64,000 nucleotides of DNA from Candidatus Omnitrophota bacterium (GTDB lineage Bacteria > Omnitrophota > Gorgyraeia > Ghiorseimicrobiales > Ghiorseimicrobiaceae). Shown here piece by piece: positions 2,354 through 55,512 of the stretch (the first letter of the stretch is position 1; every line of letters starts with the position of its first letter). The notes beneath the pieces are model-generated. The model did no database searches and had not been told where the DNA came from. It saw only the letters and a list, made by a program, of their open reading frames with translations. The position numbers were made by a program, and so were the translations under genes. The stretch covers positions 159,207 to 223,206 of the forward strand of contig JAUXSB010000003.1 of NCBI GenBank assembly GCA_030681595.1. The letters are read 5' to 3'.

Positions 2354-3481
2354 TTATATTTTCCTGTCCGGGCTTTTTATATATGATAAAATGCCGCAGG
2401 CTAATGCTTCGGCAATCTGCTGGCGGTAAAACGCATTCTTCATATATTTTTCTTCTTCGTGATTAGAAAGAAAGCCTACTTCTACTAATACCGCGGGCAT
2501 CTGCGTATGCCTTAATACCGCAAATCCAGCCCCTTTTACGCCTAAGACTTTTACGCCGGCATCCTGAGCACATAACCTAGAGATATGCCGTGCTAATTCC
2601 ACAGACTCAAAACGATTTTCCGTAAGCAACAAATCCCAGAGTATTGTTTTTGTATTTTTAGAAAGGTTGGCTTGAAAAAATTTTTTTGCTTCCAGCCCTA
2701 TTTTTTTTTCGGGTAAAGTTATGCGACTTTCGCTCAAAGTTAAAGCCCGCGCAAGATCATCAGCACTATCGCTAATATAATACACCTCAAAACCAGATAT
2801 GCTCTTTCGCTTAGAGGCATTAGCATGCACGCTAATGAATAAATCCACCCCGTTTTTATTGGCGATTTCTGCGCGTTTTTCTAACGGGATAAATACATCG
2901 CTTGCGCGCGTCGTTACTATCTCCAACCCTTTATCTTTTAATTCGCGCTTCAGCCGCATGGCGATATCCAAAACTATATTTTTTTCTTTTAAGCCATAAT
3001 ACCTGCCTATTGCTCCGGGATCCCTTCCGCCGTGGCCGGCATCAATACAGATTTTATTAATCTTATAATGAGCGATCAATCCTTTTTGTGCCGGCGTTTC
3101 AAATTTTACCAGTTTTGGCAGGATGTTAGCCTTAAAACTATAAGGGACTACAATTATTCCGTTGTGTAATTTTACCGCATCTTTTAAATCTTCTACCTTA
3201 TCCCCTATTAACGCCAAAGGGCTATCCAGGAGTAATTTTATCGTTGTGTTTTCTTTAGTTAAGGTAACTATCCTGGCGGCATCATCATAATCCCAACTTA
3301 TGTTTTCCTTTTGACAGATATTAATCAACGGCAGGTATTTTATTCCATTGATAGTTAAAGCAGGAACCGAATACGCTTCAAGGGATAACCTACTGGTCGC
3401 GCATCCTGTCATCAGGGCAGCAAGCAACAAACAGCAAGCAGCACTTAAAAAGAATGAAAGTATGTTTTTATGTTTTGCCAT
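2354..3481 (-). CDS. N-acetylmuramoyl-L-alanine amidase (Amidase_3 family) with a lipoprotein-type signal peptide. The start is trimmed to MAKHKNILSFF...; the longer track ORF (to 3595) runs into the tmRNA 3' end and its terminators.
   Basis: DAGHGGRDPGA motif and a cysteine-containing signal peptide LLAALMTGCATS. The extended N-terminus overlaps the tmRNA acceptor arm. Confidence 0.75.
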   Translation of the reverse strand: MAKHKNILSFFLSAACCLLLAALMTGCATSRLSLEAYSVPALTINGIKYLPLINICQKENISWDYDDAARIVTLTKENTTIKLLLDSPLALIGDKVEDLKDAVKLHNGIIVVPYSFKANILPKLVKFETPAQKGLIAHYKINKICIDAGHGGRDPGAIGRYYGLKEKNIVLDIAMRLKRELKDKGLEIVTTRASDVFIPLEKRAEIANKNGVDLFISVHANASKRKSISGFEVYYISDSADDLARALTLSESRITLPEKKIGLEAKKFFQANLSKNTKTILWDLLLTENRFESVELARHISRLCAQDAGVKVLGVKGAGFAVLRHTQMPAVLVEVGFLSNHEEEKYMKNAFYRQQIAEALACGILSYIKSPDRKI

Positions 3482-3496
3482 CAGCGATTGGGCATT

Positions 3497-3551
3497 GGCG
3501 CCGAAATACCTTATTTCGGCATCCACCATGCATTTCATTAATGAAATGCAT
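3497..3551 (-). terminator. Two adjacent hairpins immediately 3' of the tmRNA. One is the perfect 24-nt palindrome ATGCATTTCATTAATGAAATGCAT at 3528-3551; the other is GCCGAAATA..TATTTCGGC at 3497-3520. They are likely the tmRNA terminator or processing stems.
   Basis: Perfect inverted repeats abutting the CCA end of ssrA, just before the amidase start. Confidence 0.5.
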
Positions 3552-3971
3552 GGTGGAGGTGCGCGGAATCGAACCGCGGTCCCTAAGCATCGCAATATTA
3601 GCCTCTACATGTTTAGTTTTACCTTTTAATCTTGCCCAAAATTACTTCGGTAAACGGAATCAATCAAGGGCCAGCCTTTTACGGTTTTGCTCTAGCGCCA
3701 AAGGCAGAACGCTAAAGCTATCCTGCTTACGACGCCTGGCCCCACCCCACAGGCAGGGAGGGCAGACGGGTTACCGTATGAAGGGTAACGCTTGTGGAAC
3801 CATTGACATCACAGGCCTAACGACTTCAATAGAAGCCATCAGCTTGTTAAATGTCAATGTCTCTGCTGGTTTTTCAGCATTTGTGTTTTGCAAGGCTTTT
3901 TAACGAGGCCTGCCTTGCCACCCCGACATGCCACCAATACTACTTTGCCTAAGTCGAAACCTTTCACCCCC
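3551..3971 (-). ncRNA. ssrA: tmRNA (SsrA), one-piece. The tag-peptide reading frame could not be delimited with confidence.
   Basis: The reverse complement starts GGGGGUGAAAGGUUUCGAC... and ends ...GGUUCGAUUCCGCGCACCUCCACCA. This gives a tRNA-like T-arm and an acceptor stem with a G3-U pair (Ala identity). smpB lies 160 nt downstream. Confidence 0.85.
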
Positions 3972-4110
3972 TTAATGAATCCCGAAGCTTCGGGACGAAT
4001 TAATCCCGTTGAGTGTGTCAAAATTATAGACCCTCTGGAATTTCTTTGAAATTCCGAGGACTTAGTCCCTGAAATTGCTTCGCAATTTCTAGGGGCGAAA
4101 CGGGACAATT
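3972..4110 (-). repeat. Structured intergenic repeat, family 1, copy A. It contains the CCCGAAGCTTCGGG palindrome plus the GGAATTT..AAATTCC and GGACTTAGTCC hairpin modules.
   Basis: Shares about 40 nt (ccctctggaatttc..gaaattccgaggacttagtccc) with copy C at 22975-23020, and the CCCGAAGCTTCGGG hairpin with copies B and C. Confidence 0.7.
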
Positions 4111-4130
4111 TACAATTAACGACACATCAG

Positions 4131-4589
4131 TTATTTTTGCCTTCCCCTCATCACTCGCTTTATCTCCAAATCTACTTCACGTTTTTTTATCGTCTCTCTT
4201 TTGTCGTAAACGTTTTTACCTTTGGCTACGCCCAGCTCGACTTTAGCAATACCGCGTGAATTAAAATAAATTTTAAGCGGTATAAGCGTAAAACCCTTTT
4301 GGCTAACCGCTCCTGCCAATTTGTTAATCTCGTTTTTATGCAACAGGAGCTTCCTTACCCGCAAACTTTCAGTTCTAAACGCCCCGGTCTTTTCGTATTG
4401 GGCTATATGCGTATTATATAAGAATACCTCGCCGTTATCAATACGGGCAAAGCTCTCCGCCAAAGACGCCTTACCTTCCCTTAACGACTTAACTTCCTGC
4501 CCCATAAGTTCAATACCGCATTCTATCTTTTCAGAGATATGATAGTCGTGATAAGCCTTCCTATTGGAAATTGACGCTACGCTATCCAT
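4131..4589 (-). CDS. smpB: SsrA-binding protein SmpB.
   Basis: NRKAYHDYHI motif, and it is adjacent to the tmRNA. Confidence 0.9.
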   Translation of the reverse strand: MDSVASISNRKAYHDYHISEKIECGIELMGQEVKSLREGKASLAESFARIDNGEVFLYNTHIAQYEKTGAFRTESLRVRKLLLHKNEINKLAGAVSQKGFTLIPLKIYFNSRGIAKVELGVAKGKNVYDKRETIKKREVDLEIKRVMRGRQK

Positions 4590-5563
4590 TATGCGTTACT
4601 AATTACAGAAAACAGACTTAAGAATAAAGGTAAGGTAAAAATGCTGAATATATGCGTCCAGAAAATCCCCTGATTAATAAAATCCGCGTCTTTGGCTTTA
4701 TAATGCCGGCTGATCAACGAAAGAGAAGTTGCCGAAGGCACTGCCGCTTCTATAATAATCAATAATCCGATTAAGCCCTGCGGCTTAAACTTATAGATAA
4801 CAAACAAAGCTAAAGCCGGAACGAGTATTAATTTTGCCAGGAGAATATTAATTAAAACGCTTATTTTCATTGCCGCCCTGGAAAAATCTATCAAGGCAAG
4901 GCTTCCTCCTACTACCAACATCGCTAAGGGAATGGTGCATTCGCCGATTAATTTAAGCGGCCTAACTACCATATCCGGAATATATCCGCCTACCCCAAAA
5001 CCACTGAATAAAAGGCCGAGCAGTATTGCTACTACGACAGGGCTAAATAAACTTCCCAATTCAAATCCTTTTCTTTTGTGGCCGGAAAGTAAATATACGC
5101 CAAAAGACCAAACCAAAAGGTTAAACCCTAATAAAAATAAAAATAAATAAATTAAAAGTTCATCCGCGCGGTCTTTAGGCAGAAGTGTTGCCACTAAAGG
5201 AATTACCAGATAGCCTGAATTTTGAAAAGCCGAAAGCGCCAAAAATTCTCTTTTCTGGGGCAAAGACTTTAGGCCGATTTTAAGCAAAATAAAGCCTATA
5301 ATAAAGCCACAGAAATTAATAACCAGACTGATAAACGGAAAAACATACCAGTTAGGATAAAGCGAAAATTTAAATCTTAAAAGAAGCTGAGTAAAGACAA
5401 AAAGCGGAAGCGTTACCTCAACTACCAATTTACTGATTATATCTAACCCATTTGGACTGATAATGTTTCGCTTCAGGATTATAAACCCGATAAACCCCAA
5501 AATAAGTATTTCAAAGACCGCAAAACTCGTGCTTTTAAAAGAGGTTAAAAAAGCTTCTAACAT
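4589..5563 (-). CDS. Polytopic membrane permease, probably AEC (auxin-efflux-carrier / malate permease) family.
   Basis: About 10 predicted TM helices and an overall resemblance to AEC transporters. No diagnostic motif was verified. Confidence 0.45.
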   Translation of the reverse strand: MLEAFLTSFKSTSFAVFEILILGFIGFIILKRNIISPNGLDIISKLVVEVTLPLFVFTQLLLRFKFSLYPNWYVFPFISLVINFCGFIIGFILLKIGLKSLPQKREFLALSAFQNSGYLVIPLVATLLPKDRADELLIYLFLFLLGFNLLVWSFGVYLLSGHKRKGFELGSLFSPVVVAILLGLLFSGFGVGGYIPDMVVRPLKLIGECTIPLAMLVVGGSLALIDFSRAAMKISVLINILLAKLILVPALALFVIYKFKPQGLIGLLIIIEAAVPSATSLSLISRHYKAKDADFINQGIFWTHIFSIFTLPLFLSLFSVISNA

Positions 5564-5620
5564 AAGCCTATTATACCAGTAAAGGCACCCTGCTTCAATC
5601 CAAATTTTTGAGATAGATTA

Positions 5621-5649
5621 TTGACGAGGCAGTTAAGATGGGGTATACT
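5621..5649 (+). promoter_or_regulatory. Sigma70-type promoter for tRNA-Leu (TTGACG, 17-nt spacer, TATACT).
   Basis: TTGACG at 5621-5626 and TATACT at 5644-5649, about 15 nt upstream of the tRNA 5' end. Confidence 0.55.
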
Positions 5650-5664
5650 AAATAAACTTTAAGC

Positions 5665-5746
5665 GCGGAGGTGGTGAAATGGCAGACACGCAGGTCTCAG
5701 AAGCCTGTGCCGTAAGGTATGAGGGTTCAACTCCCTCCCTCCGCAT
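5665..5746 (+). tRNA. tRNA-Leu (anticodon CAG), type II with a long variable arm.
   Basis: Acceptor stem GCGGAGG / CCTCCGC. Anticodon loop CTCAGAA. T-arm GAGGGTTCAACTCCCTC. Long variable arm. Confidence 0.85.
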
Positions 5747-5805: not shown

Positions 5806-6576
5806 TTAAATATCTAACCCAAACAGCTTCTTCGCATTTACAGTTGTAGCTTCTGCTATTTCGCCAAAAGTAACGCTTCTGATTTTAGCGATTGTTTCGG
5901 CAAGGAGTTTTACCTGATAGGGCTCATTGCGCTTTCCGCGGAAGCCTTCCGGGGAGAGATACGGGGCATCGGTCTCCAACATCAATTTGTCTTGCGGTAC
6001 GAGCTTGAGCACTTGGCATAAATTATCCGCTTTTTTATAAGTGACATTACATGTAAAAGAAACATAAAGACCTAAATCAAGGCACTCTCTTAGAAAATCT
6101 TTATCTCCGGAAAAACAATGCATTACTCCCCGCATTTGCGGAAAGCTCTCTTCTTTTAAAATACGCAGGAAATCCGCCTTAGCCTCTCGGCAGTGAAAAA
6201 TTAAAGGAAGATTGCGCTCTTTAGCCAAACCGATAAATTTCCTAAATACCTCTTCCTGCACACTCTCTTCGGAAAGATTACGGTAAAAATCAAGGCCAAC
6301 TTCGCCTATGGCTATAACTTTTGGGTTTTTAGATAGTTCTTTTATTTCTAAAAGATTATCTTCGGAAAAATCTTTGGCATCATGAGGATGAATACCAACA
6401 GAGGCAAATACCGCGGGATATTCTTTAGAAAGCTTTACTGCCGCGCGGCTATTTTCTAGGCTTGAGCCGACATTAATTATGTATTCAACACCTGAATCTT
6501 TCGCTCGCCTAATTACCTCTTCCCTGTCGGCGTCAAATTCGGGAAAATCCAAATGACAATGGGTGTCGATTAGCAT
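5806..6576 (-). CDS. tatD: TatD-family metal-dependent DNase/hydrolase.
   Basis: MLIDTHCHLDF N-terminus and conserved His/Asp positions. Confidence 0.8.
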   Translation of the reverse strand: MLIDTHCHLDFPEFDADREEVIRRAKDSGVEYIINVGSSLENSRAAVKLSKEYPAVFASVGIHPHDAKDFSEDNLLEIKELSKNPKVIAIGEVGLDFYRNLSEESVQEEVFRKFIGLAKERNLPLIFHCREAKADFLRILKEESFPQMRGVMHCFSGDKDFLRECLDLGLYVSFTCNVTYKKADNLCQVLKLVPQDKLMLETDAPYLSPEGFRGKRNEPYQVKLLAETIAKIRSVTFGEIAEATTVNAKKLFGLDI

Positions 6577-6655
6577 AATAAGAAGTTATAAATTATAAAT
6601 TATGCGTTATAAGTTTAAAAACTCAAGAAACTCATCACTTATAACTTCTAACTCA
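6577..6655 (-). repeat. AT-rich heptad-periodic spacer element, family 3 (TTATAA-rich, containing AACTCATCACTT twice).
   Basis: Shares the AACTYATCACTT..TTATAA motifs with the leuB and leuC upstream spacers at 32645-32721 and 34681-34764. Confidence 0.55.
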
Positions 6656-8137: not shown

Positions 8138-8228
8138 TCTTGCCCCGTTAGAGATAGCCCCGAAACTTCGGGGCGTCTATCAAACCTGTGCCTTTTAAAA
8201 ATGCTCCTGCTTCCTAAATTTACTCTTA

Positions 8229-17375: not shown

Positions 17376-17465
17376 CCATAAGCCGGTAAGGCAATGGTTT
17401 GGCTTTCCATATAGCCAAAGCCATAAGCCGGTAAGGCAATGGTTTGGCTTTCCATATAGCCAAAG
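17376..17465. repeat. 45-bp perfect direct repeat x2 (ccataagccggtaaggcaatggtttggctttccatatagccaaag), each with an internal GGCTTT..AAAGCC hairpin.
   Basis: Two identical tandem copies. A partial third copy follows. Confidence 0.85.
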
Positions 17466-18269: not shown

Positions 18270-18375
18270 AATATCACTTATTACACTGATTTTAGCGGCA
18301 AAAATAATCTGTGTAATCGCTTTTTCCCGCATAGCGGGATCCCGCTTCAACTTAAATGGCTTTGGCAAATTGCGC

Positions 18376-18443
18376 GCCAAACCACTGCCTTCTGGCTTGT
18401 GGCTTTGGCTATATTGAAAGCCAAACCACTGCCTTCTGGCTTG
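18376..18443. repeat. 24-bp direct repeat x2 (GCCAAACCACTGCCTTCTGGCTTG) separated by a TGGCTTTGGCTATATTGAAAGCCA hairpin, in the mlaE-mlaF spacer.
   Basis: Exact repeats. The hairpin resembles the GGCTTT..AAAGCC module of the 17376-17465 repeat. Confidence 0.8.
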
Positions 18444-19261: not shown

Positions 19262-21694
19262 TTATTTCGGCTCAAAAATAAGCTCATCTTTCTTACGCAG
19301 CACTTTGACGCTGCTTGCTCCTTTAATCTTTCCGGAAATAATTTCTTCCGCTAAAGGATCCTCCAGATAACGCTGGATTGTCCTTTTTAAAGGGCGTGCT
19401 CCGTACTGGATGTCAAAGCCCTTTTCAATCAGCAGCTCCTTTGCTTCGGAAGAGACATCAAGGGTAATCTTCTGTTCGGTAAGGCGCTTAGCTAATTCAT
19501 TAAGCTCAATCTCAATTATCCTGTGTAAATCTTCGCGCGCAAGAGACCTGAATACTATTATATCATCAATCCTGTTTAAAAATTCGGGTTTGAATATACG
19601 CTTGACTTCATCAAGAAGCTTATTCTTCATATCCTGATAAGTAACTTCTTCGCCCTGAGACTTAAAACCCAAGGAACCTTGTTTGCGTAAAATTTCAGTC
19701 CCTATGTTAGAAGTCATAATAATAATAGTATTCCTGAAATCGACCTTTCTGCCGAAGCTGTCGGTAAGGCGGCCGTCTTCAAAAACCTGAAGCAATAAAT
19801 TAAAAACATCCGGATGCGCTTTTTCAATTTCATCTAAAAGAATTACCGCATAAGGGCGGCGCCTTACTTTCTCGGTAAGCTGCCCTCCTTCTTCATAACC
19901 GACGTATCCTGGAGGCGCGCCGATCAGGCGCGAAACATTAAATTTTTCCATATATTCAGACATATCAATTTGAATTAAAGCATTTTCATCACCGAACATA
20001 AACTCGGTAATAGTACGGGCAAGGAGAGTCTTACCGACGCCGGTCGGCCCCAGAAAAATAAACGAACCAATGGGCCGGCGCGGATCCTTAATACCGGCGC
20101 GCGAACGCCGGATCGCCCGGGCAATAGATGTAATTACCTCCTCTTGCCCTACCACCCGCTCTTTAATTTTTCCTTCGATATGCATCAGGCGCTCCGACTC
20201 TTTTTCCTCAAGGCGAATAACCGGAATCCCTGTCCATTGCGAAACAATAGCGGCAATGCTTTCTGTGTTTATCTGCGGGCGCATCTGATCGCGCTCCTGG
20301 ATCCATTTTTTATTAAGATTTTCCAAGTCGGCCCTTACCTTCTTCTCCTCGTCTCTTAATGAGGCGGCCTTTTCAAAATCCTGCGAACGGACCAAACTTT
20401 CTTTCTCTTTCTTAAACTGCTCTAATTTCTGTTCTGAATCTTTTATTTCTTTCGGGGCGGTAAGTACTTTTAATCTTGCGTGCGAACCGGCCTCATCAAT
20501 TAAATCAATGGCTTTATCCGGCAAAAACCTGCCGGTGATATACCTATCTGAAAACTTCGCCGCCGCCTCTAAAGATTCATCAAGAAATTCAACGCGGTGG
20601 TGAGCTTCGTACCTGTCACGCAGGCCCCTTAAAATTTCAATAGTCTGCTCAACCGTAGGCGGCTCGACAAATATTGTCTGAAACCGCCTTTCCAGCGCCG
20701 CATCCTTTTCGATGTGTTTTCTATATTCACCCAAGGTCGTAGCACCTATACATTGTATTTCGCCCCGCGACAAAGCAGGCTTTAAAATACTGGCAGCATC
20801 AATTGCCCCTTCGGCAGCACCCGCTCCCACCAAAGTATGCAGTTCATCTATAAAAATAATTACCTCTTTAGAACGTTTAATTTCATCCATTACCGCCTTG
20901 ATTCTCTCTTCGAACTGGCCGCGGTATTTAGTGCCGGCAACCATCAAAGCCAGATCCAAAACAATAATTCTTTTATTATGTAAAACTTCGGGGACGTTTC
21001 CGCTGACTACCGCCTGTGCCAACCCTTCAACAATAGCTGTCTTTCCCACGCCGGCTTCGCCTAAGAGCACCGGATTATTCTTAGTGCGCCGGCTTAAAGT
21101 TTGAATAACGCGGTTAGTTTCATTCTTACGGTTGACCACCGGGTCTAATTTCCCTTCCTTGGCCAGAGCGGTTAAATCACGTCCAAAAGCATCCAAGGCC
21201 GGAGTTTTTGTCTTGGTCTCAGGCCCGCCGCTCACTCCAAAACCCGGAGTAGCAGAACCTAATATATCCATTATTTCCTGCCTGACCCTTTCCAAGTCCA
21301 GGCCTAAATTAATCAACACCTGAAAAGCCACGCCTTCACCGTCACGGATAAGGCCCAAAAGAATATGTTCCGTACCGATATAATTATGCCCCAAAGACCT
21401 TGCTTCCTCCGCGGAAAGCTCAAGTGCCTTCTTTGACCGGGGAGTAAAGGGAATATCGCCTAAAATCTGAGTTGTCGGCCCGGGTTTTACTAATTTTTCT
21501 ACCTCTATCCTTATCGTTTCAAGGCTTAAGCCCATCTTCTGCAGCACCGCCGCCGCCACCCCTTCACCTTCACGTATAAGGCCCAAAAGAATATGTTCCG
21601 TACCGATATAATCATGATTAAAACGCCTGGCTTCCTCTTTTGCCAGAATAATTACTTTTCTTGCCCTTTCAGTAAAACGATTAAACATTGCCAT
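19262..21694 (-). CDS. clpC: ATP-dependent Clp protease ATP-binding subunit ClpC. The start is trimmed to MAMFNRFTERARKV.
   Basis: Duplicated Clp_N repeats, two AAA+ modules (GEAGVGKT, GPTGVGKT) and a UVR motif. GAGGAG lies 8 nt upstream of the ATG. Confidence 0.9.
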   Translation of the reverse strand: MAMFNRFTERARKVIILAKEEARRFNHDYIGTEHILLGLIREGEGVAAAVLQKMGLSLETIRIEVEKLVKPGPTTQILGDIPFTPRSKKALELSAEEARSLGHNYIGTEHILLGLIRDGEGVAFQVLINLGLDLERVRQEIMDILGSATPGFGVSGGPETKTKTPALDAFGRDLTALAKEGKLDPVVNRKNETNRVIQTLSRRTKNNPVLLGEAGVGKTAIVEGLAQAVVSGNVPEVLHNKRIIVLDLALMVAGTKYRGQFEERIKAVMDEIKRSKEVIIFIDELHTLVGAGAAEGAIDAASILKPALSRGEIQCIGATTLGEYRKHIEKDAALERRFQTIFVEPPTVEQTIEILRGLRDRYEAHHRVEFLDESLEAAAKFSDRYITGRFLPDKAIDLIDEAGSHARLKVLTAPKEIKDSEQKLEQFKKEKESLVRSQDFEKAASLRDEEKKVRADLENLNKKWIQERDQMRPQINTESIAAIVSQWTGIPVIRLEEKESERLMHIEGKIKERVVGQEEVITSIARAIRRSRAGIKDPRRPIGSFIFLGPTGVGKTLLARTITEFMFGDENALIQIDMSEYMEKFNVSRLIGAPPGYVGYEEGGQLTEKVRRRPYAVILLDEIEKAHPDVFNLLLQVFEDGRLTDSFGRKVDFRNTIIIMTSNIGTEILRKQGSLGFKSQGEEVTYQDMKNKLLDEVKRIFKPEFLNRIDDIIVFRSLAREDLHRIIEIELNELAKRLTEQKITLDVSSEAKELLIEKGFDIQYGARPLKRTIQRYLEDPLAEEIISGKIKGASSVKVLRKKDELIFEPK

Positions 21695-21707
21695 TACTGT
21701 TCTCCTC

Positions 21708-21800
21708 AATGAGCCCCGAAGCTTCGGGGCGAATTGATCCCGATAACAACAAAAAAATTTGGAACAAATTTTGAAGTGCTTTGTTATCGGGACAATCAAC
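21708..21800 (-). repeat. Structured intergenic repeat, family 1, copy B, in the clpC 5' UTR. It has the CCCCGAAGCTTCGGGG hairpin, the CCCGATAACAA..TTGTTATCGGG stem, and the AAAATTTGGAACAAATTTT palindromic core followed by GAAGTGCT.
   Basis: The core and hairpin are shared with copies C and D. The element fills the whole mcsB-clpC spacer, from the stop to the SD. Confidence 0.75.
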
Positions 21801-22889: not shown

Positions 22890-22897
22890 ATCAAACT

Positions 22898-23075
22898 TCT
22901 CCTCAATGAGCGCATAATCCCGAAGCTTCGGGATTATTTGCGCGAATTGATGCCGAAAGCTACGAGAAAATTTGGAACCCTCTGGAATTTCACAAAGTGA
23001 AATTCCGAGGACTTAGTCCCGAGGAATTCTTTCGAATTCCTCGGGGCAAATTTTCAAGTGCTATGCTTTCGGTTT
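22898..23075 (-). repeat. Structured intergenic repeat, family 1, copy C, in the mcsB 5' UTR. It is the core with a roughly 70-nt hairpin-module insertion between GGAAC and CAAATTTT.
   Basis: gcgcataatCCCGAAGCTTCGGGattatttgcgc hairpin, GAAAATTTGGAAC...CAAATTTTCAAGTGCT core, and the inserted GGAATTTCAC..GTGAAATTCC / GGACTTAGTCC / GAGGAATTC..GAATTCCTC hairpins. Confidence 0.75.
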
Positions 23076-23101
23076 AACGTATTCCTCTATAAACCTCTTT
23101 A

Positions 23102-23620
23102 TTAAGTTTCTCCTTTTTTCTCTAACTCCTTAATCTTATCGCGCAGCTCTGCTGCCTTTTCAAATTCTTCCTTTTGGATAGCAGATTGCAATTGATTTTT
23201 TAATTCCTGAACCTGAGAAACCTTTGCCTTAACAACGGGCTTTACAGGAGATTCCTGCGGTTTGTTTACCGGCGACTTTCCGATATGATGGATTGAACCG
23301 TGTATTTTTTTCAATAAAGGCTTTAGATAAAGGCTAAAACTCTGATAACACTCGTTGCATCCTAGGCGCCCTACCTTTTTAAAATTTTCATAGGTCAGGC
23401 CGCAATTCGGGCACTTTGCGCCAGCCGATGTCTGGGGTTCTACCTGCCCGCCAAGATTGGATAGGCCTGCCAAGAGATCCGCTAAACCGAATTGCTGCTC
23501 CATCTCCATGCTTTTTGCCCGCGCGCAGTTCTCGCATAAATGCAGTTCTGCCATTTGGTCGTCAATAATCTCGGTCAAATGTACGGTCGCTACACTTTTT
23601 CCACATATATCACATAACAT
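23102..23620 (-). CDS. mcsA: McsA-like activator of protein arginine kinase (zinc-finger / UVR-motif protein).
   Basis: Two CxxC pairs (CDICGK..CENC and CPNCG..CNEC) and a C-terminal UVR-like coiled coil. Confidence 0.75.
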   Translation of the reverse strand: MLCDICGKSVATVHLTEIIDDQMAELHLCENCARAKSMEMEQQFGLADLLAGLSNLGGQVEPQTSAGAKCPNCGLTYENFKKVGRLGCNECYQSFSLYLKPLLKKIHGSIHHIGKSPVNKPQESPVKPVVKAKVSQVQELKNQLQSAIQKEEFEKAAELRDKIKELEKKGET

Positions 23621-32644: not shown

Positions 32645-32721
32645 CCTCACATTCCTTTTAGAATTTATAAGTTAGAGGTTATGAATTATAAATTAAAAAC
32701 TTATAACTTATCACTTATAAT
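32645..32721 (-). repeat. AT-rich heptad-periodic spacer, family 3, upstream of leuB (TTATAA-rich; AACTTATCACTT).
   Basis: Shared with 6577-6655 and 34681-34764. Confidence 0.55.
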
Positions 32722-33219
32722 TTATAACTGCTTTTTTACCCAGGCCATCAAACCGCCCGAATTTATTAACTCTTGCATAAACGGGGCATACCCTTGGGTT
32801 TGATAAATCTTATTCTGAGTAATATTCCTTATCTCTCCTTTTTCTAAATTAACCTCTAAAATATCACCCTCATTTATTTTATCGGTATCCCTGCACTCTA
32901 ATATCGGCAGGCCGATATTGATGGAGTTACGATAAAAGATACGGGCAAAGCTTTTGGCAACTACACAAGAAATTCCAGTACCTTTAATGGAAATCGGCGC
33001 ATGCTCGCGCGATGAACCGCAGCCAAAATTTTTACCGGCAACAATAATGTCGCCGGATGACACAGATTTACTAAACTCCGGCCTAATCCCCTCCATACAA
33101 TTCTTGCCTAATTCTTTGGGATCGGTCGTCACCAAAAATTTCGCCGGAATTATCTCATCCGTATTTAGATCATCGCCGAATTTATAGACTTTCCCCTTAA
33201 GTGTCATTTTTATTATCAA
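32722..33219 (-). CDS. leuD: 3-isopropylmalate dehydratase small subunit (short, archaeal-type LeuD).
   Basis: Aconitase swivel domain of about 165 aa, adjacent to leuC. Confidence 0.8.
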   Translation of the reverse strand: MIIKMTLKGKVYKFGDDLNTDEIIPAKFLVTTDPKELGKNCMEGIRPEFSKSVSSGDIIVAGKNFGCGSSREHAPISIKGTGISCVVAKSFARIFYRNSINIGLPILECRDTDKINEGDILEVNLEKGEIRNITQNKIYQTQGYAPFMQELINSGGLMAWVKKQL

Positions 33220-33387: not shown

Positions 33388-34680
33388 TTAACCCACTACC
33401 TCATCCGGATGCGCAATCCTGCCTTTTACCGCGCTTGCCGCAGCCACCGCCGGATTGGATAGATACACTTCGCTTTTTAAATCTCCCATCCTGCCGACAA
33501 AATTCCTGTTAGTTGTAGCAAGGCAGCGTTCACCCGCGGTTAAAATTCCGGCATGCCCGCCTAAGCAAGGGCCGCAAGTAGGCGTTGTTACTACTGCGCC
33601 TGATTTTACAAAGATATCAATCAGGCCTTCCTTAATTGCCTGTAAGTATATATTCTGTGTTGCCGGTATCACAATACAACGTGTATAAGGATTAACTTTT
33701 CTCCCCTTTAAAATTTTTGCGGCCAGGCGTAAATCCGAAATCCTTCCGTTGGTACAAGAACCTATTACCACCTGATCTAATTCTATATTACTTAATTGCC
33801 TTACCTGCTTAACATTGCTGGGAAGATGCGGGCAGGCAACCAAAGGCCCTATCTTCGAAACATCATATTCCTTGATTTGCGCATAAATAGCATCTTTATC
33901 GGATTTTAGATTTTTGAATTTTGAATTGTAATTTTGCCTTTTGCCTTTTACCTTTTGCGTTTCTTTGACATAGTTAAAGGTCGTCTCATCCGGCTCAATT
34001 ATCCCGGACTTTCCGCCGGCTTCAATCGCCATATTGCACATAGTAAATCTGTCATCCATCGGCAGGCTGCTAATTACATCGCCGCTAAATTCCATTGCCC
34101 GATAGGCAGCGCCGTCAACGCCGATATCGCCTATTGTATGCAAAATTAAATCCTTACCACCGACCCATTTATTTAATTTGCCATAAAAAATAAATTTTAT
34201 TGTTTCCGGGACCCTCAACCATACCCGTCCAGTTACCCAAGAAGCGGCTAAATCAGTCGAGCCAACACCGCTGGAAAATGCGCCTAATGCGCCATAAGTA
34301 CAAGTATGAGAATCGGCTCCAATAACTAAATCTCCGGGGCCAACTAAACCTAATTCCGGAAGAAGCGCATGTTCAATACCCATACGGCCCACTTCATAGT
34401 AATGCTTAATTTTATATTTTGCGGCAAAATCTTTTAATATTTTTGCCTGTTGCGCGCTCTTTTTATCCTTTGCCGGAACAAAATGATCGGGAACTAAAAC
34501 AATCTTATCTTTGATTGCCGGATTAATCCCTAATTTTTCAAATTCCTCTATGGCTAAGGGCGCGGTAATATCATTGCCTAAAGATAAATCTACCTTTGCC
34601 CAGATAAATTCACCTACCCGAATATCTTTCTTATCAGGCGTGTGAGCCAATAATATTTTTTCAGTAATTGTGTAAGGCAT
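33388..34680 (-). CDS. leuC: 3-isopropylmalate dehydratase large subunit (LeuC, about 430-aa type).
   Basis: Aconitase-family Fe-S ligand cysteines (..CTNGR.., ..TCGPCLG..). Confidence 0.8.
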   Translation of the reverse strand: MPYTITEKILLAHTPDKKDIRVGEFIWAKVDLSLGNDITAPLAIEEFEKLGINPAIKDKIVLVPDHFVPAKDKKSAQQAKILKDFAAKYKIKHYYEVGRMGIEHALLPELGLVGPGDLVIGADSHTCTYGALGAFSSGVGSTDLAASWVTGRVWLRVPETIKFIFYGKLNKWVGGKDLILHTIGDIGVDGAAYRAMEFSGDVISSLPMDDRFTMCNMAIEAGGKSGIIEPDETTFNYVKETQKVKGKRQNYNSKFKNLKSDKDAIYAQIKEYDVSKIGPLVACPHLPSNVKQVRQLSNIELDQVVIGSCTNGRISDLRLAAKILKGRKVNPYTRCIVIPATQNIYLQAIKEGLIDIFVKSGAVVTTPTCGPCLGGHAGILTAGERCLATTNRNFVGRMGDLKSEVYLSNPAVAAASAVKGRIAHPDEVVG

Positions 34681-34764
34681 GTAATATCTAAGTTAGAAGT
34701 TATGAATTATGAGTTACAAGTTATGAGTTAAAAACTAATAACTTATCACTTCTCATTCATAACT
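34681..34764 (-). repeat. AT-rich heptad-periodic spacer, family 3, upstream of leuC. It has six tandem TAACTYN heptads and can fold as a long imperfect hairpin.
   Basis: In the mRNA sense it reads TAACTCA TAACTTG TAACTCA TAATTCA TAACTTC TAACTTA, preceded by GTTATGA-type heptads complementary to them. Confidence 0.6.
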
Positions 34765-36000
34765 TCACTTGAATTTTTTTACTACTAAAGTGGCGTTATG
34801 CCCGCCAAAACCCAATGAATTAGACATCGCCACTTCTACTTTTGTGTTGCGGGCTTTATTAGGTACGTAGTCTAAATCGCACTCAGGGTCAGGATTTTCG
34901 TAGTTGGTTGTAGGCGGGATAATATCATTTTTTATAGCTAAAGCGCAGATAACAAACTCGATTCCTCCGGCCGCGCCCAATAAATGTCCGGTCATGGATT
35001 TCGTAGAACTTACCGCTATTTTTTTAGCGTATTCACCGAATAATTTCTTAATGGCTAAAGTTTCAATCCGGTCATTAAGCAATGTGGATGTTCCATGAGC
35101 ATTTATATAAGAAACATCTTTGGGCAAAATACGCGCGTCTTTTAAAGAAAGTGCCATCGCTCTTACTGCACCGTCAGCGGTTGAATCAGGTGCCGTAATA
35201 TGATAGGCGTCTCCGCTCATGCCGTAGCCGACAATCTCGGCATATATTTTTGCCTTACGTTTTAAAGCATGCGGTAGCGACTCTAACAACACAACTCCCG
35301 AACCCTCAGACATAACAAAGCCGTCTCGGTCGCGGTCAAAAGGCCTGCTTGCTTTCTCCGGCTCATTATTTCTCTTAGAAAGCGCCTTTAAAGCACAGAA
35401 TCCACCGATGCCCAGATACGTAATCGCACTTTCCGTGCCTCCGGCAAGCATTAAATCGGCATCGCCCCTTTGAATTATCTTAAAGGCATCTCCTACAGCA
35501 TGCGAACCTGAAGCACAGGCAGTCGCAACGCAGGAATTCGGCCCTTTAAAACCTAAATCTATTGATATGTGCCCCGCTGCCTCGTTAACAATAAGCATCG
35601 GGATAAGAAACGGGGACAGCCTTGAGGGGCCCTTTTCAAGATAAACTTTAAACTGTTCTTCTATTATATGCAAGCTTCCTATGCCCGAACCAACAACAAC
35701 ACCCGCGCGGTTTTTATCTATTGCGGATGAATCTAGTCCCGCATCATTAAATGCTTCTCTTGCCGCGGCCACCGCATACTGCACAAATTTATCTACATGC
35801 CTTACTTCTTTCGCGGAGAAATACTTTAAAGGATCAAACCCTTTTACCTCCCCGGCAATCTGCGAATCAAAAGCTGAGGCATCAAAAACAGTAATCCTAC
35901 CTATACCGCTTTTGCCGGCAAGTAAATTTTCCCATAGGGTTTTTGTATCATTTCCTAACGGCGATATGCTGCCTAGCCCCGTAATAACTACTCTTTCCAT
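34765..36000 (-). CDS. fabF: 3-oxoacyl-ACP synthase II.
   Basis: KAS II active-site Cys (ATACASG) and His/His motifs. Confidence 0.9.
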   Translation of the reverse strand: MERVVITGLGSISPLGNDTKTLWENLLAGKSGIGRITVFDASAFDSQIAGEVKGFDPLKYFSAKEVRHVDKFVQYAVAAAREAFNDAGLDSSAIDKNRAGVVVGSGIGSLHIIEEQFKVYLEKGPSRLSPFLIPMLIVNEAAGHISIDLGFKGPNSCVATACASGSHAVGDAFKIIQRGDADLMLAGGTESAITYLGIGGFCALKALSKRNNEPEKASRPFDRDRDGFVMSEGSGVVLLESLPHALKRKAKIYAEIVGYGMSGDAYHITAPDSTADGAVRAMALSLKDARILPKDVSYINAHGTSTLLNDRIETLAIKKLFGEYAKKIAVSSTKSMTGHLLGAAGGIEFVICALAIKNDIIPPTTNYENPDPECDLDYVPNKARNTKVEVAMSNSLGFGGHNATLVVKKFK

Positions 36001-53019: not shown

Positions 53020-53117
53020 TTCTTTATAATTCTTTATTCCTATCCCGAAGCTACGGTCGGGATAAATTCCGGCACACAGGTTATGTCAACTACCGTTTCC
53101 ATAACCTGTGCCGTTAT

Positions 53118-54776
53118 TTACATTCTCTCCGGCGCAGATAACCCTGAAAGTAAAAGCCCGTTTCTTAATACAATCCTAACCGCATTAAGTAATTTAAGGC
53201 GGGCACAGCTTAAATCAAGGGATGCTAAATCCAAAACTTTATGCTTATCGTAACATTTATGAAAATCCGCGGCCAGTTCTACCAAATATTGCGTCAACGG
53301 ATAAGGATCAAACAGATCCAAGCACAAACTTAAAGCCAGCGGAAATTGCGCTAGTTTGCGCATAAGCATTAATTCTTCGAGGTTGGTGAGCAGTTTTAAG
53401 TCGGCATTTCCATGCGGGAAATTCTCCTCCTTTTCCTTATGCAATATGCTGGAAATCCGCGCGAAAGCATACTGGATATAATAGACAGGATTTTCCTGAG
53501 ATTCCTTTTTGGCCAAGTCCAAATCAAAATCTAAGTGGCTGGAAACACGCCTTGCAACGAGAAAAAAACGCGCCACATCTTTGCCTACTTCGTCAATAAT
53601 CTGGCGCAAGGTTACATAACTTGCCTTTCTGGTCGACATCGGCACAACTTTACCTTCGCGCAATAATGTCACTAACTGCACAATTATTACAGAAAGAGCA
53701 TCTTTCTCCTGCCCTAACGCAGAAACAGCTGCGCGAATTCGCGGGATATAGCCATGGTGATCCGGGCCCCATAAATTGATTACCCGTTTAAACCCACGCG
53801 CAAATTTATCACGATGATAGGCTATATCCGGAGCAAGATAAGTATAGCTTTTATCGCTCTTTATAATCACTCGGTCTTTATCATCGCCAAAAAGGGTTGA
53901 CTTAAACCAAACTGCCCCTTCGGAATCATAAATAAAATCTTTCTTTCTTAAAAATTCTATTGTATCTTCAATTTTTCCACTTTTGCTTAAAGCGCCTTGG
54001 GATGACCAAACGTTAAATTTAACATTAAAGTCTGCCAAATCATTTTTTATACCATCTAGTATATTTTTTACTCCGTATTCGGAAAAATTAAAATTTTGAT
54101 TTTCCAGCTTCAAGTTTTCAATTTCGGCGGCCATATCCTTCACATAATCCCCTTGATAATAATCTTCGGGAAAATCTATTTTCTCGCCCCTTAATTCTTT
54201 AAGCCTTAACTTGATAGAATTACCTAAGATATTAATCTGGTTACCCTCATCGTTTAAATAATATTCCCGTGTTACGCTAAAGCCTAAAAATTCCATTATC
54301 CTAGAAAGAGCATCCCCTACAGCAGCCTGCCGGGCATGGGCGATACTTAACGGCCCGGTGGGATTAGCACTCACAAATTCAATCTGTACCTTTTCTTTAT
54401 TTCCGAGGTCAACTTTGCCAAAATCACTATCTAACCTGATAATTTCCTCTATTTTTTTATAAAAGTATTCGTCTTTAATGAAGAAATTAATAAATCCCGC
54501 TCCGGCAATTTCAATTTTCCCGATTTCATCTTTTAACGGGGAAACGCTAATTTCTTTCTCTAGAATCTGTACAAGGGATTCGGCGATAATGCGGGGATTC
54601 TTTTTAAGGATCTTGCTTAATTGTAAAGCGGAATTGGAAGATAAATCACCGTGTATTCTCTCAGGCGGTATATTTAAAGAAAAAACACTTGAAACAAAAG
54701 CCTCGTCCTCTGTAATTTGGCCTGCCGCTTTGCCTATTACGATACCAAGCTTTTCTTCTAAATCAGTTTTTATCAT
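53118..54776 (-). CDS. argS: Arginyl-tRNA synthetase.
   Basis: HIGH-type motif (SANPTGPLSIAHAR) and a C-terminal DALR domain. Confidence 0.9.
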   Translation of the reverse strand: MIKTDLEEKLGIVIGKAAGQITEDEAFVSSVFSLNIPPERIHGDLSSNSALQLSKILKKNPRIIAESLVQILEKEISVSPLKDEIGKIEIAGAGFINFFIKDEYFYKKIEEIIRLDSDFGKVDLGNKEKVQIEFVSANPTGPLSIAHARQAAVGDALSRIMEFLGFSVTREYYLNDEGNQINILGNSIKLRLKELRGEKIDFPEDYYQGDYVKDMAAEIENLKLENQNFNFSEYGVKNILDGIKNDLADFNVKFNVWSSQGALSKSGKIEDTIEFLRKKDFIYDSEGAVWFKSTLFGDDKDRVIIKSDKSYTYLAPDIAYHRDKFARGFKRVINLWGPDHHGYIPRIRAAVSALGQEKDALSVIIVQLVTLLREGKVVPMSTRKASYVTLRQIIDEVGKDVARFFLVARRVSSHLDFDLDLAKKESQENPVYYIQYAFARISSILHKEKEENFPHGNADLKLLTNLEELMLMRKLAQFPLALSLCLDLFDPYPLTQYLVELAADFHKCYDKHKVLDLASLDLSCARLKLLNAVRIVLRNGLLLSGLSAPERM

Positions 54777-55375: not shown

Positions 55376-55389
55376 CTTAATCCTCCTCA

Positions 55390-55512
55390 ATGACGACACG
55401 AGTTATAAGATCCGCCGTAGGCGGAGACGTAACTCGCATGTCGGAATTGATACCGACAGCTACAAAGAAAATTTGGAACAAATTTTTGCAGTGTTTTGCT
55501 GTCGGTATATAC
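55390..55512 (-). repeat. Structured intergenic repeat, family 1, copy D, in the 5' UTR of the zinc-ribbon gene. It has the ATACCGACAGC..GCTGTCGGTAT stem, the GAAAATTTGGAACAAATTTTTGCAGTGTT core and a CCGCCGTAGGCGG hairpin.
   Basis: Core identical to copy B over AAAATTTGGAACAAATTTT. The architecture is hairpin, core, then SD. Confidence 0.7.

Follow-up and report, generated by a model that had tools for sequence, protein, structure and literature searches.

The DNA analysed here, a stretch of 64,000 nucleotides from a Candidatus Omnitrophota genome (the window), carries on its minus strand the gene smpB at 4131-4589 (Pfam PF01668, 9.7e-58) followed by the tmRNA gene ssrA at 3551-3971, which was called by ARAGORN and matched over its full length by Rfam RF00023 (174.6 bits), with its mature 5' G at position 3971. 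The two genes are separated by a spacer of 159 nt (3972-4130), most of which is taken up by a structured repeat on the same strand, copy A (3972-4109), that touches the tmRNA +1; the earlier note on this DNA was right in placing a repeat copy directly against the tmRNA 5' end. In the transcript sense copy A begins with ATTGT and continues with a long hairpin P1 of the beta type containing a nested insert, a linker, a second hairpin P2 and the tail TCATTAA. P1 (4005-4104, minus strand), which was delineated by its fold and by alignment to beta-type copies, has a base helix of CCCGTT (4104-4099) with AACGGG (4010-4005), and its 3' arm TATAATTTTGACACACTC matches the beta-type copies; the insert, a two-hairpin unit around GGGACTAAGTCC belonging to repeat family D5, lies at 4032-4095 on the minus strand. 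P2 (3972-4003, minus strand), which is defined by its fold and by covariation in helices 4 and 5, consists of a base helix of TTAAT (4003-3999) with ATTAA (3976-3972), a UC/UC internal loop (3998-3997 with 3978-3977) and a stem of GTCCCGAAG with CTTCGGGAT (3996-3979). The earlier note had this hairpin ending 12 nt before the tmRNA, a figure that needs correction, as 9 nt (3972-3980) lie between the GC-rich core and +1, and beyond the core P2 goes on with a G-U pair, a U-A pair, the UC/UC loop and the 5-bp base helix. Because the ATTAA strand of that helix occupies 3976-3972, the P2 structure reaches position -1. A terminator scan of 3900-4700 gave no terminator-like site between smpB and ssrA.

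Copy A is a true member of a repeat family. The core of its P2 hairpin, CCCGAAGCTTCGGG at 3981-3994, is repeated exactly at 21715-21728 and 22919-22932, and at up to 2 mismatches it has seven matches in the window while 0.24 would be expected. Two blocks of copy A, one of 39 nt (87% identity) and one of 53 nt (77%), recur in the copies that precede clpC and mcsB (repeat families D3 and D5); a covariance model derived from copies with the other P1 subtype matches copy A at 3966-4105 (E=0.014), and it aligns base for base with copies in the relatives L114, L121, L122 and L124, the P1 identity to the second L114 module being 29/31 over AATTTTGAYACACTCAACGGGATYAATTCGT. In the window, further copies were found on the minus strand in the mcsB-clpC spacer (copy B, 21706-21796, with an alpha-type P1; 92.9 bits with the covariance model), in the mcsA-mcsB spacer (copy C, 22903-23073, with an alpha-type P1 plus the nested insert; 68.5 bits) and upstream of a gene for a small DUF5679 protein that is followed by rsfS and argS (copy D, 55387-55507; 110.5 bits). 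The tail TCATTGA of copy B directly precedes GGAG, with the clpC ATG at 21691, and after the tail of copy C, also TCATTGA, comes GGAGAAGTTTGATATG. Copy D has a promoter-like TTGACC-16-TATAAT match (55601-55574) about 66 nt before its P1. An antisense copy on the plus strand lies between argS and recJ at 53043-53120 (46.4 bits, E=2.8e-8), and its tail overlaps the argS stop codon (53118-53120).

Smaller hairpins of related appearance were also seen. In the 91-nt spacer between PSP1 and metG there is a lone P2-like hairpin, GATAGAcgCCCCGAAGTTTCGGGGctATCTC (8150-8185, minus strand), while in L114 PSP1 and metG overlap and have no spacer, which makes this another presence/absence difference of a hairpin module. 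Just 3' of the tmRNA CCA end, at 3481-3550 in the minus sense, lie two hairpins, the first being ACCATGCATTTCATT/AATGAAATGCATGGT, which pairs with the tmRNA 3' CCACCA, and the second GCCGAAATA-agg-TATTTCGGC; read on the plus strand they resemble a small antisense unit of P1 and P2 (17 bits, E=0.09). In their place L120 has ATTTGTTTCATTAATGAAACAAAT, with an identical centre and covarying arms.

The unit, 90-180 nt in size with two different hairpins, runs in the transcript sense from P1 through the linker AT(Y)AATTC and the variable hairpin P2 with its UC/UC loop to the tail TCATT(R)A. The base of P1 pairs yCCGAnAGC with GCTnTCGGr, and one unpaired A separates P1 from P2, which itself is made of a 5-bp base helix, T(Y)AAT with ATT(R)A, around the UC/UC internal loop and a sequence-variable stem. 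Two subtypes of P1 were distinguished: in the alpha subtype the apex GAAAATTTG-TTC-CAAATTTTC is almost invariant, and in the beta subtype, to which copy A belongs, CCCGyyTCATAAAATG...CAyTC..CGGG has a covarying apex. The nested two-hairpin insert, centred on GGGACTRAGTCC, occurs in copies A and C and in L097, at a different point of P1 in each. Subtypes of P1 and P2 are mixed across copies, the spacing between conserved boxes varies by 18-60 nt among them, and units form tandem arrays in L114 and head-to-head arrays in L098, L086 and L104. The sequence AAUUC...UCAUU around the tandem U-C mismatch is invariant, and the P2 stem varies freely with compensatory changes.

We built a covariance model from 17 copies and used it to align 45 distinct copies. 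Paired cells amounted to 94.9% in this alignment as compared with 77.9% in shuffles, none of 500 of which reached the observed value, and sliding the alignment as a control gave at most 45.5%. Changes on both sides were found in 24 of the 30 pairs; at the Y/R pair of the P2 base helix, for instance, 17 copies have CG, 17 have UA and six have AU. The stems are almost purely Watson-Crick, G-U accounting for about 3%, and the strands hardly differ in their number of G-U pairs (49 in sense and 50 in antisense among about 1,700 pairs). Folding is better for the antisense strand, by about 4 kcal/mol, and this strand has the advantage in 33 of 38 copies. The repeat fold is real, and nothing in the strand test speaks for selection having acted on the mRNA strand as opposed to a DNA palindrome. 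At the gathering threshold Rfam matched only the tmRNA and tRNAs across the whole window; with E values up to 10 it gave nothing credible at 3900-4200, and with E values up to 1 nothing at five loci with canonical copies. A literature search yielded no description of this two-hairpin repeat family.

When metagenome contigs were scanned with the element pattern, 32 loci matched, and the covariance model, run on these loci and on contigs of relatives, brought the total to about 45 non-redundant copies, counting the window together with the Omnitrophota metagenome contigs; viral contigs scanned with the element pattern gave 0 matches. Close relatives are present in the Hainich groundwater samples H41/H51. 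Copies can be dense, with up to seven matches in 11.5 kb (L086), or about one per 1.6 kb. The repeat family is spread over many unrelated genes in one clade of groundwater Omnitrophota, the genes downstream of copies including dnaJ, rpmJ, rpsK, acpP, radA, rph, exbD, hypC, mtnA, a galT-like gene, mlaD and others, and from this diversity it follows that the family has no common function in terms of the genes it precedes. Copies also sit inside conserved operons, such as rpmJ...rpsK and mcsA-mcsB-clpC.

Placement of the copies follows strict rules. Most belong to class 1, which is oriented in the sense of the downstream gene. A GGAGG-like (Shine-Dalgarno-like, G-rich) sequence begins 0-2 nt after the tail in 28 of 39 copies, and in the remaining class 1 copies a start codon, ATG or GTG, begins 0-3 nt after it, so that the distances from tail to start codon are bimodal, either 0-3 or 9-15 nt, and 4-8 nt does not occur; about ten copies abut an ATG, and the one at L098 dnaJ, like that at the L124 mcsB, does so where there is no Shine-Dalgarno sequence. 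The 3' end of the element coincides with the tmRNA +1 in five lineages and with the tRNA-Leu +1 in two, where it would lie exactly at two RNase P cleavage sites; the earlier note had also listed an RNase P or RNase E processing determinant among its options for the element. On the other side, the left flank of copies is loosely ATTGT or TTTT. About ten copies form class 2, which is antisense: their tails, CTCACTTA or TCATTTA, overlap the end of a gene, covering its last codon and stop codon. Such copies often stand head to head with class 1 copies, the pair filling the whole spacer between co-directional genes (L098, L086, L103, L104).

The smpB-ssrA spacer is occupied in eight of the ten clade lineages sampled, with differing modules. 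In L126 (93% SmpB identity) a shortened alpha P1 starts the spacer, and the contig ends in the linker, 56 nt into the element and before the tmRNA junction. One alpha copy fills the spacer of L119 (83%) from 4 nt past the stop codon to TCATTGA/GGGGGTGAAAGG, and the syntenic spacer of L114 (82%) contains three modules, of which the second is orthologous to the P1 of copy A and the last abuts the tmRNA. A beta copy abuts the tmRNA in L122 (70%), another leaves 6 nt between its tail and the tmRNA +1 in L121 (70%), and in L118 (69%) a P2 module abuts it as CTCACTAA/GGGGG. The spacers of L120 (75%) and of L116/L117 (67%) are unrelated and have no element, and in more distant Omnitrophota (SmpB identity up to 62%) the spacer is 0-7 nt long or of unrelated sequence, again with no element; a search of GTDB species representatives with SmpB gave only such distant relatives (at most 62% identity), none with the element. 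Since the element is absent from the distant Omnitrophota sampled and its modules differ within the clade, the ssrA site is a clade-specific insertion that is usually occupied and whose modules change. In this comparison of the spacer among relatives, which the earlier note had suggested, the element is missing in L120, L116/L117 and the distant Omnitrophota and present in most lineages of the clade; of the possibilities that note had listed for the element, an insertion into the smpB-ssrA spacer is supported by the element-free distant Omnitrophota and the varying module combinations of clade relatives. In public short-read assemblies of this clade (L001, L115 and L126) the contig that carries smpB breaks off within the element or right beside it; the repeat fragments assemblies, and as a result they often lack the tmRNA on that contig.

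Most element sites differ between relatives, as seen at mcsB, clpC and tRNA-Leu. In L123, with 95% McsB identity, the mcsA and mcsB genes overlap and have no element, and the whole 21-kb syntenic stretch of this relative contains no copy at all. L124 (89% McsB identity) has a beta-type copy between mcsA and mcsB with the junction TCATTGA/GATG, L125 (80%) has no element there, and when the window is compared with L123, L124 and L125, the mcsB/clpC site is filled only in the window. The window's mcsB insertion (22890-23130) is flanked by a 13-nt direct duplication, GGAGAAACTTAAT at the end of mcsA and GGAGAAGTTTGAT in the mcsB Shine-Dalgarno region, in place of which L123 (9960-10010) has a single chimeric-looking GGAGAAATTTGAT; this arrangement is consistent with either a precise loss by recombination or the ancestral state. 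No target duplication was found at the L124 mcsB or at tRNA-Leu. At the L124 junction (5870-6010) a 12-nt deletion took the mcsB Shine-Dalgarno sequence, leaving the ATG 1 nt past the element tail and the open reading frame intact, which hints that the element itself may be able to support initiation.

The site at the tRNA-Leu(CAG) gene is empty in the window and filled in two relatives. In the window the gene, at 5665-5745 on the plus strand, is preceded by a promoter TTGACG-17-TATACT within 5620-5664 and a leader of about 15 nt, with no element. L114 and L119 keep TTGACG-17-TATACT, and in both a class 1 element lies between this promoter and the tRNA-Leu +1, with the junction TCATTGA/GCGGAGG. 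With the promoter upstream of it and the tRNA-Leu +1 downstream, the element at this site must be transcribed and then removed, and it represents an insertion; as an essential tRNA has to be cut free of it, RNase P substrates evidently tolerate the element. This favours the option, likewise raised in the earlier note, of the element being a leader. A separate arrangement was seen in L093 (170-470, minus strand), where a class 1 element is preceded by the 5' part of a tRNA in a truncated and diverged form, which keeps about 35 nt of upstream flank, and followed by the intact tRNA, 37 nt downstream; about 60 nt are thereby duplicated on the two sides of the element.

Copy A is best read as a member of a lineage-specific group of modular two-hairpin repeats that colonise transcribed spacers in one Omnitrophota clade. 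We think it somewhat better than an even chance, judging from the sequence comparisons, that at this locus the interspersed structured repeat is co-transcribed with smpB and serves as a removable pre-tmRNA leader. In such a scheme smpB and ssrA would be contained in one transcript, in which the element would serve smpB as a 3' untranslated tail and pre-tmRNA as a 5' leader; RNase P would cut between 3972 and 3971, at the 3' boundary of the element, to release the mature tmRNA, and the smpB fragment would keep P1 and P2 at its 3' end, where they could slow its 3'-to-5' decay. We infer co-transcription because no terminator-like site was found, because L119 leaves no room for an external promoter and because ancestrally smpB stands directly before ssrA. 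The element is not a tmRNA-specific or a proteostasis-specific regulator. Its mobility would be read from the presence/absence patterns, as neither terminal inverted repeats nor a regular target duplication was found, nor a transposase among the window reading frames that were annotated. Besides this, a plain leader has against it that the 3' anchoring is tighter than neutral insertion predicts, that the ssrA site is far more consistently occupied than other sites, and that the L124 mcsB starts 1 nt past the tail without its Shine-Dalgarno sequence. Neutral insertion combined with genome compactness explains the abutment at ssrA and mcsB, where ancestral spacers are tiny, but not at copy D and L084, where the tail abuts a Shine-Dalgarno sequence or ATG even though long upstream spacers are available.

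The earlier note had also proposed that the element might be the ssrA promoter, and the stretches TCTATAAT (4030-4023) and TTTTGACA (4023-4016) that it had pointed out are indeed present in copy A; since TATAAT precedes TTGACA in the transcript, however, these two boxes cannot form one promoter. A promoter-like TTCAAA-16-TATAAT (4023-4050, minus strand; TTCAAA at 4050-4045, predicted start near 4016) does match at 10 of 12 positions inside copy A, and TATAAC is found in many P2 stems elsewhere, yet three sites were found where 1.6 are expected, which is near chance, and the boxes of copy A are missing from the orthologous copies in L114, L119, L121 and L122. Sigma-70 boxes at 16-18-nt spacing occur in copy A only and not in copies B and C, the P2 hairpins of copies A, B and C have no -10-like box, and the tens of nucleotides by which the spacing of conserved parts varies (the 18-60 nt noted above) do not suit a promoter. 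Further evidence against it comes from tRNA-Leu, where a separate conserved promoter lies upstream of the element, and from head-to-head pairs, which are 0-27 nt apart and leave no space for external promoters. The promoter reading, whether applied to the element in general or to copy A alone, therefore did not hold up for ssrA and appears quite improbable to us, although TTCAAA-16-TATAAT could provide copy A with an added, private start site. Even less credible is a cis-regulatory leader, an RNA thermometer or protein-binding site, that coordinates proteostasis and ribosome rescue through clpC, mcsB and ssrA. These genes do follow three of the four sense copies in the window, which had led to the suggestion of a functional parallel with the McsB and ClpC copies, and the P2 base helix abuts the Shine-Dalgarno sequence; but the Shine-Dalgarno sequence itself is unpaired in the conserved structure, dozens of functionally unrelated genes lie downstream across the family instead of orthologous genes of a coherent functional set, and a density of about one copy per 1.6 kb in L086 is not what a regulon would show. 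A proteostasis regulon is not supported because the 95%-identical L123 has neither the mcsB nor the clpC copy, and L124 and L125 lack one or the other. The parallel drawn earlier is accordingly not supported as a functional link.

A stronger rival to a removable leader is a functional cassette for RNA punctuation or start-site definition, in which an endonuclease or the fold itself would act at the 3' foot of P2 or at the UC/UC loop and would set the 5' ends of tmRNA, tRNA-Leu and mRNAs that are Shine-Dalgarno-first or near-leaderless, while the hairpins would stabilise the 3' end of the upstream RNA. One junction rule for four kinds of downstream start, the bimodal distances to the start codon (0-3 or 9-15 nt), the invariance of AAUUC...UCAUU next to a P2 stem that varies with compensation, the intact mcsB reading frame of L124 despite its deleted Shine-Dalgarno sequence, and an ssrA site that stays filled despite module turnover all speak for it. 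It has to be set against this that at most sites close relatives differ by the gain or loss of copies, with none in the 21-kb syntenic stretch of the 95% relative, that antisense copies exist, that L121 has 6 nt between the tail and the tmRNA +1, and that no enzyme was identified; moreover, G-U pairs that are rare and equal on both strands and an antisense strand that folds better are unusual for selection on one RNA strand. On balance we regard the cassette as possible but on the unlikely side. A bolder formulation, by which the anchoring reflects either RNA punctuation through hairpin-guided cleavage at the P2 foot genome-wide or a mobile element homing to Shine-Dalgarno-like sequences, is one that we hold with still less confidence and consider unlikely; the tmRNA 5' end GGGGGUGA and the tRNA-Leu 5' end GCGGAGGUGG both resemble GGAGGUGA. 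For an RNA function at gene starts, be it P2-foot processing, insulation or Shine-Dalgarno-independent initiation, there are hints from the L124 mcsB and from the roughly ten copies that abut an ATG; insertion or recombination directed to the neighbourhood of Shine-Dalgarno-like sequences would fit the anchoring as well.

The repeat family can be likened to BOX, REP/BIME, ERIC and Correia elements, yet it is a member of none of them. With BOX of Streptococcus pneumoniae (boxA-boxB(n)-boxC) it shares the build of modular small repeats with optional internal modules (PMC3049150), and BOX elements too are transcribed in operons and untranslated regions, form stable stem-loops, are variably present and can affect neighbouring expression (PMC3049150). 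However, BOX has terminal inverted repeats and target duplications and no fixed junction to a Shine-Dalgarno sequence or start codon, whereas the Omnitrophota unit has no terminal inverted repeats and a 3' end 0-3 nt from the downstream start signal, and there is no sequence similarity between the two. The enterobacterial REP/BIME elements and the REPINs, which are mobilised by RAYT transposases, are likewise extragenic imperfect palindromes with near-perfect Watson-Crick stems, and they also come in mosaic combinations of hairpins and linkers and in head-to-head pairs, lie between co-transcribed genes and affect mRNA stability through 3' hairpins (PMC3049150). As a palindrome array the Omnitrophota repeat behaves as these do, with 94.9% paired cells, about 3% G-U, mixed subtypes and both tandem and head-to-head arrays, but REPs are 20-40 nt long, lie mostly after genes and carry a GTAG-type motif, in contrast to a unit of 90-180 nt that lies mostly before genes and in their sense.

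Correia elements of Neisseria and ERIC/IRU of enterobacteria are similar in that they too are interspersed, measure 100-150 nt, are transcribed along with genes and form long hairpins (PMC3049150), and Correia is reported to be cut by RNase III and ERIC to trigger RNase E cleavage, which alters mRNA ends and stability (PMC3049150); the 26-bp terminal inverted repeats, the TA duplication and the ability to create promoters that characterise Correia were not found in the Omnitrophota repeat. Strict 3' anchoring to start signals and an antisense class on stop codons have not been described for BOX, REP/BIME, ERIC or Correia. By analogy only, the repeat also recalls the intercistronic RNase III sites of phage T7 and mitochondrial tRNA punctuation, in which cleavage of intergenic structured units sets the downstream 5' ends and leaves protective hairpins upstream; unlike those, the Omnitrophota element is not tRNA-like, and its presence/absence turnover is unexpected for an essential processing signal. 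As for mobile elements, single units have no terminal inverted repeats of the MITE type, their 5' end ATTGTCCCGAC... being unlike the reverse complement of the 3' end (TCAATGAGC...), and inverted ends arise only in head-to-head pairs of two units. With regard to IS200/IS605-derived palindrome elements, which have subterminal hairpins at both ends and insert 3' of a fixed 4-5-nt target on one strand, the unit has two hairpins, a right flank that is G-rich or Shine-Dalgarno-like in 28 of 39 copies and a loosely defined left flank; no fixed tetranucleotide was identified, nor a TnpA among the selected window open reading frames that were annotated. Nor does the unit look like an integron attC site, for it has no AAC/GTT cores, its conserved ends are ATYAATTC and TCATTRA, and the flanking genes are housekeeping genes in conserved synteny.

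These results remove the tempting idea of a tmRNA or proteostasis control element, as a general repeat happens to form the putative pre-tmRNA leader. They also describe a structured repeat family of an uncultivated phylum that is absent from Rfam and breaks metagenome assemblies, and they provide a natural case in which an essential tmRNA and tRNA-Leu would be freed from a leader with a helix that reaches to -1. The unusually strict junction with translation start signals, if functional, would suggest that RNA structure or processing defines start sites, and either RNA punctuation or Shine-Dalgarno homing, if true, would be without described precedent in bacteria.

Some further features of the window and its relatives lie outside this family. 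A separate AT-rich repeat family with TTATAAGTTAGAGGTTATGAATTATAAAT-like units, both direct and inverted, is present in intergenic positions at 32658-32743, 34679-34766 and 6577-6616, and in L125 the spacer between mcsB and clpC is filled with similar AAGTTATGAGTT units. A 45-nt stretch (CCATAAGCCGGTAAGGCAATGGTTTGGCTTTCCATATAGCCAAAG) is duplicated exactly in tandem; this duplication and its inverted partners about 960 nt away, which are 93% complementary, lie at 17376-17465 and 18369-18443 and bracket an mlaF-like open reading frame. Finally, the tag peptide that ARAGORN called for the tmRNA of the window (VTLHTVTRLPSLPVGWGQAS) is probably wrong; long tags starting with AN or AD are found in L003, L006, L010 and L025, and the calls for L002 and L114 are equally doubtful.
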